A DNA stretch of 64,000 bases from Octopus vulgaris. Lineage: Eukaryota. A model generated the notes under the pieces. The model did not search any database. It saw only the letters and a program-made list of their open reading frames with translations, and was not told the DNA's origin. The stretch lies in NCBI GenBank assembly GCA_951406725.2, contig OX597827.1:31620001-31684000 (forward strand), in the 5' to 3' direction. The first letter of the stretch is position 1; each line of letters opens with the position of its first letter. The translations under genes were made by a program, and so were the position numbers. Below, piece after piece: positions 1-57,380 of the stretch.

Positions 1-440
1 GGGGATGCAAATCCTCTCAGTCGCGTACGACACAATGCGGCACCAGCACAAAAATGAAGCGTCCATCCCGTCTTTCTCTCAATGTAGAATGTGCCACCAG
101 CACGAGGGCCAGTGAGGTGATACATTGAGAGAAAGACGGGATGGACGCTTCATTTTTGTGCTGGTGTCGCATTGTGTCGTACGCGACTGAGAGGATTTGC
201 ATCCCCAACGTAGAATTTTTGATGTAATACATGTCCTTGAAGTAGTGATTGTGCGCGGCTGAAGAAGGCCATAGACACACATTATGCATTGTTATAAATC
301 CGTCTAACAATGGCCTGAAACATATGTACCGCTGAATCCTTGGCATCATGTTTTTATTTTGATTAATTTACTCCACCACCTACACCACCAAACGGTATAT
401 ACAGGTGCTTACAATTATCAAGTACTCACCCTGAATTTTT
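1..440 (+). mobile_element. Penelope-like element terminal remnant with fold-back and hammerhead motif
   Basis: Inverted arms at 1-86 and 121-206, a complete hammerhead motif at 255-332, and an end in a (TA)n/(CA)n tract. The Penelope-like element (PLE) assignment is inferred from this architecture. Confidence 0.6.
255..332 (+). ncRNA. Type I hammerhead ribozyme motif
   Basis: GCGG-CTGAAGA-AGGCCAT..(37 nt)..ATGGCCT-GAAA-CATATG-TA-CCGC. Core is intact, helix II is 7 bp, helix III is the palindrome ACATATGT, and helix I extends via GATT/AATC. Confidence 0.85.
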
Positions 441-1125
441 ATATATATATATATACACACACACACACATAGAGAGAGAGAGAGAGAAAATTTTTAATGT
501 GTGTGTGTTTTTGTTTTTGTTGTTGTGTCCTTCCCTCATAAGTATGCAAACTTATGTGTGGGGACTTGTCGAAGTCGAGTCGAGTCAAGTCAAGTTTTAC
601 CAGCAGTCATAAACCATACTAATTATAGTTATAATGAGTTAACGCAGGATGATTAAAGGTTGAAGAGCTGAGGGTTGGAAAGGAGGTAATAATACATCTT
701 GGACTTGTAGTACACTGTTGTTGTTGTTATTATTGTTATTAATATTACCGTCGTCGTTGTCATCATCATCATTGTTGTTGTTGTTATTGCTGTTGTTATC
801 ATTATTATTATTGTTGTTGTTGCTATTGTTGTGTTATGAAAAATATCACAAATGTCAACTGCTTTGGCAGAAACAATTCAAAATTTTCCTAAAGAAATTT
901 CTCAACATGTAAAACTATTTCAGTTCATGTAGACATTGTATATATGTATGTAATAGGTGAACATGTGGGTGTGCGATAAGAAGGTTGCTTCCCAACCGCA
1001 TGGTTGTGGGTTCAGTCCCACCATGCAGCATATTGTGCAAGTGTTTTCAACTTATGTCATGGGCTGACCAAAGCTTTCTGAGTAGATATGGTAGATGGAG
1101 ACTGAAAGAAGCCTGTCTCTCCTGG

Positions 1126-1638
1126 ACTAGATATGCTTAATGAAAAATAACTTAATTAACTAAATTTTAACATCAAATCCTCCGAAATAATCACCTTGCC
1201 AAGCAATACACCAATCCTGGCATCTCTGCCACTTTTGGAATCCGGTCTGGAAGTCGTTTTCCATAAGAGCGTCAAAGACCTTCTGCAATCTGCTCTGGAT
1301 CTCAACAAAAGTGTTAAAATGGCGACCTTTGAGCTACATTTTGATCTTGGGTAAGAGATGGAAGTTCACAGGTGCTAAATTGCTGTAAGCTTTCTGGAGA
1401 ATGCTCAATCTCACTGTAGTGGACTTCCTAAGTTTAACGCAAAATTTCAAGTTATCTCTTTGTTCCAAATTCCTGTCCATGACAAAAACTGCAGACTACA
1501 ACGTATATGTGATCACACAAATTTCATAACTTCTGAAGTAAACACAGTATTGTCACTTGGCACACTGCCTCATGAAGGTTACTGCTAGCTCTCACAACCA
1601 TGTGCTACCATCTGTTGGTGTGCTACAGAACTAGTCCA
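1126..1638 (-). mobile_element. Mariner transposon relic (C-terminal transposase, internally deleted)
   Basis: Minus strand reads LAPVNFHLLPKIKM*LKGRHFNTFVEIQSRLQKVFDALMENDFQTGFQKWQRCQDWCIAWQGDY, a typical mariner C-terminus with a stop. Ends are approximate. Confidence 0.8.
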
Positions 1639-2464
1639 AAAACACTTTGATCCTACCTTATAGATATATATTTTTTTTAAATGTCTTGCAAGTACTTGGT
1701 GACCTTGTCAGTGCAGGTGCCACGTAAAAAGCATCCAGTCCACACTGTAAAGTGATTGGCCTTTGGAAGGGCATCCAGCTGTAAAAATCCTGCCAAAACA
1801 GAAGTCTGGTGTGGGCGTCTGCCTGGCTGGTTCTTGTGGTACCATCCCACCCATGCCAACATGCAAGACAAATGTTAAACAATGATGATGATGATGATAT
1901 GAATATGTCTATCTATGTGTATCTTTATGTCTGTATTTGCTCCTGAACACTGCTTGACAACTGGTGTTGCTGTGTTTATGTGGCATAACTTAGTGGTTCG
2001 GCAACAATGATTGATAGAATAAGTACCAGGCTTAAAAAGAAGTAAGCCCTGGGGCTGATTTGTTCAACTAAAAATTCTTCAAAGGGATGCCCCAGCATGA
2101 CCACAGCTTAATGACTGAAACAAGTAAAAGATGAATATATATATATATATATATATATATATATATAGCAAATATGGTGGTTCATCAACTTTTGGACATT
2201 AAAATGTTAACTTATTTATTTGTTAAACTGATAATTATAACATACATACATATAGCATATTATTCTTTACATATAAGATATAAGATATAAAATATAGTAA
2301 TATATAAGGATGCCAGTAATTATAATAAACATGAATATAAATTGGTAAAATAACTTACAGGTGTTTCAGCCAATAGACAAAAGTACCTCATTCTACCTAT
2401 ATTACTCAAGTGGATTGAGGTAATAGGTAGATGACCATGAGGTACTTGTATATATATATATATT

Positions 2465-2855
2465 CTTTTATTCTTTTACTTGTTTCAGTCATTTGACTGT
2501 GCCATGCTGGAGCACTGCCTGTAGTCAAAGAAATCGAACCCAGGACTTATTCTTTGTAAGCCTAGTACATATTCTACTGGTCTCTTTTGCTGAACCGCTA
2601 AGTAACGAGGATGTAAACACACCAGCATTGATTGTCAAGCAATGGAGGGGGGATAAACACAGACACACAAACACATACACACACGCACACACATATACGA
2701 CGGGTTTCTTCCAGTTTCCATCAACCTGATCTACTCACAAGGCTTAGATCAGCCCGAGGCTATAGTAGAAGACATTTGCCCAAGGTGCCATGTAGTAGGA
2801 CTGAACCTGAAACTATGTGGTTGGTAAGCAAGCTACGTACCGCACAGCCTCTCCT
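2465..2855 (-). mobile_element. tRNA-derived SINE family A (representative of >15 copies)
   Basis: Head GGCTGTGCGGTA...GGTTCAGTCC (A/B-box like), core CCTTGGGCAA..GTCTTCTACTATAGCC, tail ...ACTGAAACAAGTAAAAGA. Other copies lie near 960, 6726, 11899, 16460, 23005, 27700, 29028, 33345, 33716, 35390, 37605, 38838, 39140, 47236, 59620 and 63727. Confidence 0.85.
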
Positions 2856-3159
2856 ATATATTTTTACAGAAAACAAAAGAGGAAGACAGGTGATGGAAGA
2901 ACAAGCAGGTGTATTAGTTTCATGCTCAGGAAGAATGGAAAAGTCTTTGACATTTCGAGCATATGCTCTTCGACAGAGCTGATCGAAAGGGGAAAAATGA
3001 AGAGAGAATGCATAAAAAGCACAGAGAGAGGAAAAAAATGTGCATGGATTATTGGTTCAACAGGATTATGTATGTGTGTATATATATATACACATACATA
3101 ATCTTGTTGAACCATTATATATATATATATATATATATATATATATATGAATGCCATGT

Positions 3160-56800: not shown

Positions 56801-57010
56801 TGCCTGTCTCAAGAGCCTCGTCTAGTTTTCTAACTAAATCCCACTCTGTTTTCCTACGTTCTACAGCTAGAGCCTTACTAAACCTAATTGACTCTGCTCT
56901 AATTGCTCTCTTGAGGGCAAACCACCAGTTATTGTTGATGATTGCCCCTGTGAGCACCCGTTTAACTAATAAACTAATCCGGTCTCTGGAGGCTTCCAGT
57001 AGCTGGGTCC
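53898..57010 (-). mobile_element. Second Tx1/L1-clade LINE ORF2 fragment
   Basis: GLDGLPYELY, PITLLNAELKILAKVLAKRL, SVRQGCPLSSLLY, AYADDA and CPRCAQDDETILHALIQC. Interrupted by a SINE. Confidence 0.93.
55165..55392 (+). mobile_element. tRNA-derived SINE family B inserted in the LINE
   Basis: GCGAGCTGGCAGAAAC..GAGTTCAAATTCCGCCGAGG..CATCCTTTCGGGGTCGATAAA. Many further copies lie at about 4540-5000, 8060-8260, 9845-10280, 13290-13440, 53115-53325 and 61945-63050. Confidence 0.85.
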
Positions 57011-57030
57011 CTGTCTATGTAGCCTATCTA

Positions 57031-57130
57031 NNNNNNNNNNNNNNNNNNNNNNNNNNNNNNNNNNNNNNNNNNNNNNNNNNNNNNNNNNNNNNNNNNNNNN
57101 NNNNNNNNNNNNNNNNNNNNNNNNNNNNNN
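57031..57130. other. Assembly gap (100 N)
   Basis: Run of n. Confidence 1.
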
Positions 57131-57252
57131 ATATGCTATCACACAGTAGGAATTTTCCTTTTACTGGATATACATATGGAAATCTGTTAATACCCACAAA
57201 ATTAATACAAAAAAAATTATAAAAGAAGATGGAATGAACAGGCTTTAATCTA

Positions 57253-57380
57253 ACTCACTACAATTGTTTCTGTGCTTTAATATCAGCTGGTAATTGCTGA
57301 GTGTTTCACATCATATTATACACATTATTCCATTAATATGATCCAACAATAACTGTGTACCTGCGCATCTTCGGGTGAGT
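57253..57380 (-). ncRNA. Type I hammerhead motif with very long loop II (U4C variant)
   Basis: Minus strand: ACTCAC-CCGAAGA-TGCGC..(87 nt)..GCACA-GAAA-CAATTG-TA-GTGAGT. Helix III is the palindrome ACAATTGT. Confidence 0.65.

Follow-up and report, generated by a model that had tools for sequence, protein, structure and literature searches.

A 64,000-nt stretch of the Octopus vulgaris genome (contig OX597827.1, positions 31,620,001 to 31,684,000; hereafter the window) was scanned for type I hammerhead ribozymes with a descriptor consisting of the core C[TC]GAnGA, a spacer of at most 150 nt, GAAA, a helix III of at least 3 bp, UH and a helix I of at least 4 Watson-Crick bp, while helix II was not demanded. 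Exactly six motifs were found, with core starts at positions 259 (+), 7072 (-), 7451 (+), 32826 (+), 43435 (-) and 57374 (-), all of them with a palindromic helix III. They fall into five families, F1 to F5 in window order, the motifs at 7072 and 7451 both belonging to F2. A sixth family (F6), with a rearranged hammerhead, was overlooked in the first-pass annotation of the window. These motifs are very likely the hammerhead-bearing 3' ends of six independent families of Penelope-like elements (PLEs) situated at microsatellites, whose ribozymes likely release RNAs of unit length from tandem transcripts for renewed copying into the genome.

Type I hammerhead motifs of the window

The six motifs were re-found where the first-pass annotation had placed them, with the helix I and helix III sequences it had given. 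Shuffled sequence performs far worse: 300 block-wise dinucleotide shuffles gave a mean of 0.013 motifs and a maximum of one, and none reached six. CUGAnGA, GAAA, UH and helices I to III are present in F1 to F5, in the order C-G-S (the blocks are described under F6 below). The spacers between CUGAnGA and GAAA measure 51, 27, 27, 14, 62 and 97 nt in window order, from which the reported loop II inserts of 37, 54 and 87 nt follow. C replaces U at core position 4 in the motifs at 7451 (F2) and 57374 (F5), as a family-wide state in the first case and a minority state in the second. In the motif at 259, the helix II of 7 bp is a private feature of the window copy, most F1 copies having one mismatch and 4 bp. 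Just beyond the left window edge lies another type I motif, the seventh, which is the inverted partner of the F1 motif. No hammerhead family was among the 150 Rfam matches listed out of 298 for the window, nor did any of five loci give a hammerhead match at the gathering score.

Genome-wide abundance

The family of each motif is a dispersed repeat across the 2.8-Gb assembly. First-look searches returned 1473, 1083, 2254, 394 and 587 candidates for F1 to F5, respectively, numbers that are not copy numbers; 40 candidates were scored per genome search, and the family alignments comprise the 20-25 best loci. The core is kept in these alignments, together with the palindrome and the long spacer. 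F1 and F2 are young (~96-98% identical) and F5 is old (~80%).

In 60 arbitrary 10-kb stretches we found 17 type I motifs per 600 kb, compared with 2 in 20 shuffled sets; 8 of the 17 had a spacer of at least 49 nt. The genome-wide density is consequently about one motif per 35 kb, not the one per 10 kb proposed from the window. The window thus has about three times the average density (Poisson P ~0.01 counting motifs, 0.024 counting elements). Extrapolation gives ~80,000 motifs genome-wide (46,000-127,000), so that the suggested large, under-annotated population stands as to its size but not as to its density. The raised local density could be taken to indicate a selected ribozyme cluster with a host function. 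However, every one of these motifs belongs to a set of hundreds to thousands of copies scattered in (TA)n, the choice of the window was based on its having motifs, and several of its copies carry damaging private changes or antisense arms. Such a function is extremely improbable, and the supposed cluster is a nest of independent insertions.

In the copies found here the 3' end is fixed and the 5' end varies, and an inverted partner is often present; this, together with a tail at one end only, is the arrangement described for PLEs (PMC8557442, PMC11167929). 5' truncation, an inverted partner and a microsatellite target are present in F1 to F6, while a tail at one end was seen in F1, F2, F3 and F6.

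F1, F4 and F5 at the ends of Hydra-clade elements

Upstream of F1, an open reading frame (ORF) was reached by walking. Among ten loci at the 5' part of this ORF, the ribozyme was found in sense directly before the start codon in three (L353, L355 and L358) and inverted in one; it also occurs ~2 kb 3' of the ORF. Locus L362 is a whole natural unit, with a core at 367, an intact 836-aa ORF at 634-3141 and a second core at 4760, the 3' half of which no longer matches. In L363 both ribozymes are intact (536 and 5295) and the ORF is broken. Both loci have a single ORF with reverse transcriptase (RT) and C-terminal GIY-YIG parts (LYRDD and YIG motifs) between direct pseudo-long terminal repeats (pLTRs). 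F1 units measure 4.4-4.8 kb, with 1.6-2.5 kb from stop codon to ribozyme, and the tail of the window copy is the 5' untranslated region of the next unit.

The F1 protein has the motifs RW, DKT, CxCX5C, YIG, CxxC before E and CxH after N, and is without GxKF and DKG; its RWK-like motif reads RWA. By these motifs it agrees with the published definition of the Hydra clade (PMC8557442), under which the label 'Nematis', tried for this ORF, was replaced. The only species-named homologue is from Argonauta, and Pfam gave no RT or GIY-YIG match on the two pieces of L242. Contigs of four sequencing runs cover F1, although ends and expression are not readable from such contigs.

ORF remnants were also found upstream, on the ribozyme strand, in four F4 and three F5 copies, with CxCX5C upstream of F4 in L198 and of F5 in L281 and L282. 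These remnants are decayed and closer to the Hydra than to the Neptune ORF. Judged from the associated ORFs, F1, F4 and F5 are the 3' ends (pLTRs) of Hydra-clade PLEs, and the link to RT/GIY-YIG ORFs that the first-pass annotation had proposed to look for is thus present, upstream and on the same strand, in all three long-loop families. Within the window itself, no PLE protein remnant was found.

Hammerheads were also seen in other PLEs. A young Neptune-type PLE (L129, L132, L166 and L171) has an intact 781-aa ORF in many copies and a short type I hammerhead 800-900 nt past the ORF stop, with U3-A8 core covariation. The Neptune ORF beside F1 copy L218 was considered as the parent of F1 and rejected, because that Neptune element stops at (TA)n and bears a short hammerhead of its own. 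Another Hydra family (L251:5050-7406 (+), L294, L299, L311 and L321) carries a hammerhead with a 10-nt spacer in the 5' pLTR, which is the commonest motif in the random sample.

The long helix II arm

The segments enclosed beyond helix II measure 41 nt in F1, 54 nt in F4 and ~87 nt in F5, family-wide. Most long spacers fold as interrupted, extended stems, suggesting that the long arm is an extended helix II lying outside the core; the expanded loops II of the first-pass annotation are accordingly long throughout their families, but mostly form further stems instead of open loops. Compared with shuffles, the long-spacer fold had z < -2 in 5 of 15 copies. Less favorable to an extended helix are the z values of the inserts, which range from +0.4 to -4.5 and are significant in some copies only, and the folding value of 0.09 for the insert of the F5 window copy.

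Four of five Hydra-linked families (F1, F4, F5 and L317) have spacers of 51-97 nt, whereas none of the four Neptune-linked families, a small sample, has a long arm (18, 20-23, 31 and 32 nt). Left out of this count were L128 (118 nt, with an internal duplication of the 20-nt motif), L186 and L257 (weak matches), L233 and L358 (F1 by a Neptune fragment), L086 (a single F2 case) and many ORF loci without a match. The idea that the long arm marks the Hydra clade holds in part only, since the Hydra family of L251 has a 10-nt spacer. Unrelated type I families with spacers of 42-78 nt were seen in L129, L185, L213, L296, L314, L316, L317, L323, L326 and L330, of which L317 alone was tied to a Hydra ORF end.

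Type I hammerheads might also be passengers that the elements do not need, with the long arms as neutral expansions. The inserts are indeed unrelated in sequence between families, and one F4 copy has a microsatellite expansion inside its insert; moreover, Naiads are reported to thrive without canonical hammerheads, which may simply parasitise PLEs (Craig et al., PMC8557442). Nevertheless, many unrelated families retain the core, the palindrome and the closing stem, and helix II reaches at least 3 bp in 10 of the 17 random-sample motifs though the scan did not demand it, which makes passengers an improbable explanation.

F2, F3 and F6 as non-coding units

In many dispersed copies of F2 and F3, the sequence past the 3' end re-enters the family's own unit upstream of the ribozyme. 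One natural direct tandem locus was found per family, with a period of 480 nt in F2 and 352 nt in F3. Almost all F2 copies end at unit position 195 or 295 (100 nt apart), while F3 copies end near 205 or 260 (~55 nt apart). In the window, the minus arm of F2 covers unit positions 3-195 and 321-480 and the plus arm 246-480 and 1-295, the 100-nt tail being on the plus arm; in F3, an inverted partial copy precedes the plus copy and is complementary to helix III and the 3' strand of helix I. Folded as circles, the units are more stable than shuffles (F2 z -5.5, F3 z -6.0; 0 of 60 shuffles as good).

F6 has a similar layout. Its unit of 776 nt, the only one of the three checked for ORF content, has no ORF >94 codons and occurs in a natural direct tandem with an inverted partner. 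Its 3' ends lie at unit position 211 or 294, and the sequence beyond again re-enters the unit upstream of the ribozyme. F6 copies near Neptune ORFs (L153, L156, L158 and L159) were rejected as parts of those elements, being separate insertions at (TA)n.

From this organization, we read F2, F3 and F6 as short non-coding units in partial tandems with the PLE signature. F2 and F3 are, by the same marks, retrozyme-like, so that the retrozyme-like alternative of the first-pass annotation fits these two short-arm families. An autonomous partner was found for none of F2, F3 and F6, whose tails also matched none of 12 ORF start regions. It is conceivable that they instead are truncated 3' pieces of unsampled autonomous PLEs, with the tandems as local duplications: choosing copies by best score favors short young insertions, and the F2 copy L086 lies 266 nt past a Hydra endonuclease remnant. 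Against this, many scattered copies re-enter the same unit, some of them being longer than a single unit, the tail of the autonomous F1 leads into an ORF instead, and the F6 unit is without a long ORF; truncation thus seems a poor explanation. A fragment of large-subunit ribosomal RNA (L291:825-1566) was seen near the F2 tandem.

The candidate rearranged hammerhead of F6

F6 includes two cores of the window, at 38557 and 39626, that fail the type I scan. A first search gave 2378 candidates, 95-99% identical at the top, and a second one, which brought up a divergent subfamily E, gave 2247. The motif consists of block S (helix III strand, UH, helix I strand) and a short linker, block G (helix II strand, GAAA, helix III strand) and another linker, and block C (helix I strand, CUGAnGA, A, helix II strand). 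All conserved core letters are present, in the order S-G-C, which is the non-circular order of Eckert et al. 2023 (PMC10085705). The window copy has two private changes in helix I, and the older F6-type copy has lost block S at the fold-back truncation.

A profile search of the loci gave 27 distinct stretches, 13 of which were aligned after omitting five without block S and nine near-identical subfamily A copies. Both sides have changed in 7 of 11 pairs and 93.7% of the cells are paired, values reached by none of 500 shuffles, while slid-register controls gave 39-68%. Between the two subfamilies with the best sampling, A (20 rows, some copies twice in overlapping loci) and E (14 rows), column counts show family-wide changes of C-G to U-A at I.1, I.5 and III.2, G-C to U-G at II.4 and G-U to G-C at II.3. 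Helices I, II and III all covary, helix II most weakly, and five subfamilies preserve the core letters and the three helices, which cross one another. The blocks would fold as a double-pseudoknot core whose helix III, of 5 bp, is intramolecular, and F6 would then cut as a monomer. Its structural conservation makes F6 a candidate type-SGC hammerhead in an animal retroelement.

Alternatively, the block order may be a relic of duplication or rearrangement, the RNA forming a local hairpin after CUGAnGA without cleavage. A competing hairpin is present in all subfamilies, and as a hairpin sequestering the 10.x strand it is the nested minimum-energy fold in both subfamilies tested; RNAfold, however, cannot form pseudoknots and therefore cannot score the SGC fold. 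Helix II is weak, with two G-U among four pairs in subfamilies A-D, and a candidate fourth helix, judged by eye, is conserved but has 3-4 bp at most and no covariation, whereas published SGC ribozymes require a fourth helix that connects stems I and II at their outer sides (PMC10085705). The covariation score is inflated by relatedness and by the structure having been read from the same sequences, and the shuffle test ignores relatedness. All of these points count against an active F6. In the random 600 kb, furthermore, four F6 remnants were found at E <0.001, none intact by a strict descriptor, and a de novo SGC descriptor showed no excess, with one match unrelated to F6, at chance level (L351:1474 (-)), against two in 15 shuffled sets. 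Still, core letters and crossing helices have been kept with compensatory changes in five subfamilies, and the helix I-helix II linker of ~3 nt in A-D matches published type-SGC ribozymes. A relic is, on balance, unlikely, although clearly to be reckoned with.

Proposed mechanism

Self-cleavage is predicted for all motifs F1 to F6. A complete insertion would have two ribozymes in direct orientation, and transcription through pLTR-ORF-pLTR or a tandem would yield RNA with both, from which cutting would release the unit-length RNA for copying back into the genome. In the type I motifs, the 8-9-nt palindromic helix III would pair between two copies, and cutting would therefore need a dimer. Such dimer cleavage is predicted from folding: helix III has 2-3 bp as a monomer and 8 bp as a dimer, and for F1, F3 and F4 the minimum-energy homodimer is a full hammerhead with an 8-bp intermolecular helix III, 12-20 kcal/mol below two active monomers.

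Several observations weigh against this scheme. The homodimer minimum is not a hammerhead fold in F2 and only partly one in F5, and at most 25 best-scoring copies per family were looked at. PLE hammerheads are reported to cleave weakly in vitro, even as dimers, and to be without the loop I-loop II tertiary contact (PMC4209133), and eight of nine Xenopus retrozyme dimers did not cleave (bioRxiv 2026.07.22.740005). As to the window itself, its copies are truncated or fold-back and probably dead on arrival; in the fold-back insertions of F1, F2 and F3 the second copy is on the opposite strand, and read-through RNA would therefore form a long hairpin over the ribozyme.

Features of the window

Table 1. 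Hammerhead motifs, their insertions and other repeats in the window (window coordinates).
Feature	Position	Strand	Remarks
F1 type I hammerhead	255..332	+	core 259-265, GAAA 317-320, predicted cut after 328; pLTR of autonomous Hydra-clade PLE
F1 insertion	1..440	both	plus arm ~121-366, ~70-nt tail to 440, then (TA)n
F1 inverted arm	from ~91, leaving window leftward	-	5'-truncated; seventh motif past left edge
F2 insertion	6907..7746	both	two divergent partial copies of 480-nt non-coding unit; (TA)n flanks
F2 type I hammerhead	7020..7078	-	left arm of fold-back insertion
F2 type I hammerhead	7445..7503	+	right arm; C at core position 4
Large fold-back element	16566-17358		short TTAGGG/CCCTAA telomere-like runs in both arms; no hammerhead found
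Tandem repeats of 67-nt unit	19886-20449, 40491-40625, 61123-61455		within a common dispersed repeat
RT fragments of long interspersed nuclear elements	24070-24912, 44520-46375, 49602-51810, 54214-57014, 61584-61952	-	presumably CR1/L2-like, RTE-like and L1/Tx1-like
F3 insertion	32636..33089	both	plus copy of 352-nt non-coding unit with ~55-nt tail
F3 type I hammerhead	32820..32864	+	short helix II
Inverted repeat	36436-36872		surrounds transposase fragment, presumably mariner-like by its motifs
F6 insertion	38306..38775	+	5'-truncated copy of 776-nt non-coding unit, end at (TA)n
F6 candidate type-SGC (non-circularly permuted) hammerhead	38509..38568	+	
F6 blocks	S 38509-38519, G 38523-38535, C 38552-38568	+	predicted cut after 38514
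Second, older F6-type copy	39367..39661	-	blocks G and C only (39615-39661)
F4 element	~43235-43660	-	between (GATA)n and (TA)n
F4 type I hammerhead	43351..43439	-	62-nt spacer; 3' end of decayed Hydra-clade PLE
F5 element	~57131-57480	-	cut off by assembly gap 57031-57130
F5 type I hammerhead	57253..57380	-	97-nt spacer; 3' end of old Hydra-clade PLE
AT-rich hairpin of ~135 nt	57668-57802		near F5 copy

Relation to known hammerheads

Hydra-clade hammerheads (Craig et al. 2021, PMC8557442) are, as here, of type I with a palindromic helix III of 8-11 nt, and their elements share the (TA)n targeting, the protein motifs and often an extra mismatch between core and helix II; an octopus family, Hydra-1_Obim, is listed among them. 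However, loop 2 measures 3-10 nt in 26 of 26 published Hydra rows (File S2) compared with 41-87 nt in F1, F4 and F5, and the published elements are mostly <3 kb compared with 4.4-4.8 kb in F1. Two spike-moss PLE-X elements in the same paper have loops of 29 and 35 nt, and long loops therefore have a precedent. The minimal PLE hammerheads of Cervera and de la Pena 2014 (PMC4209133) share the pLTR location, the diversity within a genome and the dimer model; they occur mostly as single copies, some as opposite-strand pairs 100-700 bp apart, as here, and their U3-A8 core variant is also found in a Neptune family of the octopus. In these hammerheads helix II has 6-8 bp and helix III is minimal, whereas here helix III is longer and helix II has long extensions. 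In the papers searched, we found no relevant account of hammerheads with a long stem II, and octopus hammerheads only in Craig et al.; a 2026 octopus repeat annotation has no mention of ribozymes in its accessible part (PMC13282606). The variant classes of Lunse et al. 2017, according to the review PMC6765202, may overlap with the present variants.

Non-LTR retrozymes (Cervera and de la Pena 2020, PMC7229834; Li et al., bioRxiv 10.64898/2026.07.22.740005) are likewise non-coding units measuring a few hundred nt, with a single hammerhead, an arrangement in direct tandems and a stable circular fold, and have been proposed to be non-autonomous PLE derivatives. F2, F3 and F6 differ in being mostly dispersed partial tandems with a PLE tail and inverted partner, and F6 in addition is without a type I motif. 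With the type-SGC HRIMA-1 (Eckert et al. 2023, PMC10085705), F6 shares the S-G-C order, CUGAnGA, GAAA, UH, the three crossing helices and the short helix I-II linker. The published type-SGC ribozymes were obtained from metatranscriptome contigs with a link to hairpin ribozymes, as well as in broader searches of sequence data, whereas F6 is a high-copy animal repeat in which the core is followed by an additional unpaired A, helix II is weak and a fourth helix is not clearly present. A term search in the supplement of that paper gave no 'Octopus', 'Metazoa' or 'Eukaryota'. In the literature outside subscription papers, 'type-SGC' hammerheads were found only in the 2023 paper and none in an animal genome; titles and the beginnings of abstracts likewise gave no non-circular hammerhead permutation in animal genomes.

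The type I motifs are thus of a known kind with a new measure, i.e. the long arms, and the rearranged F6 family adds most. About half of the sampled type I hammerheads are long-armed and fall outside the 7-17-nt spacer of the core searches in PMC8557442. The claim that Naiads lack hammerheads becomes retestable with a wider descriptor, eight Naiads, one of them from octopus, having been marked in that paper as having half cores with a second half 35-50 nt off. The insertion sites of F2, F3 and F6 are evidence that PLE proteins copy retrozyme-like units. We consider it fairly probable that this animal genome harbors thousands of PLE-mobilised retrozyme-like copies with an active, monomer-cutting type-SGC hammerhead, next to a large class of type I hammerheads whose helix II extensions of 40-90 nt are missed by standard descriptors, and that such forms may be present in some PLEs described as lacking hammerheads. 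F6 matters most, as through it non-circular RNA permutations would be known from an animal retroelement and no longer just from environmental contigs, and its young and old subfamilies offer material on how the permutation arose and whether the need for a dimer is thereby lifted.

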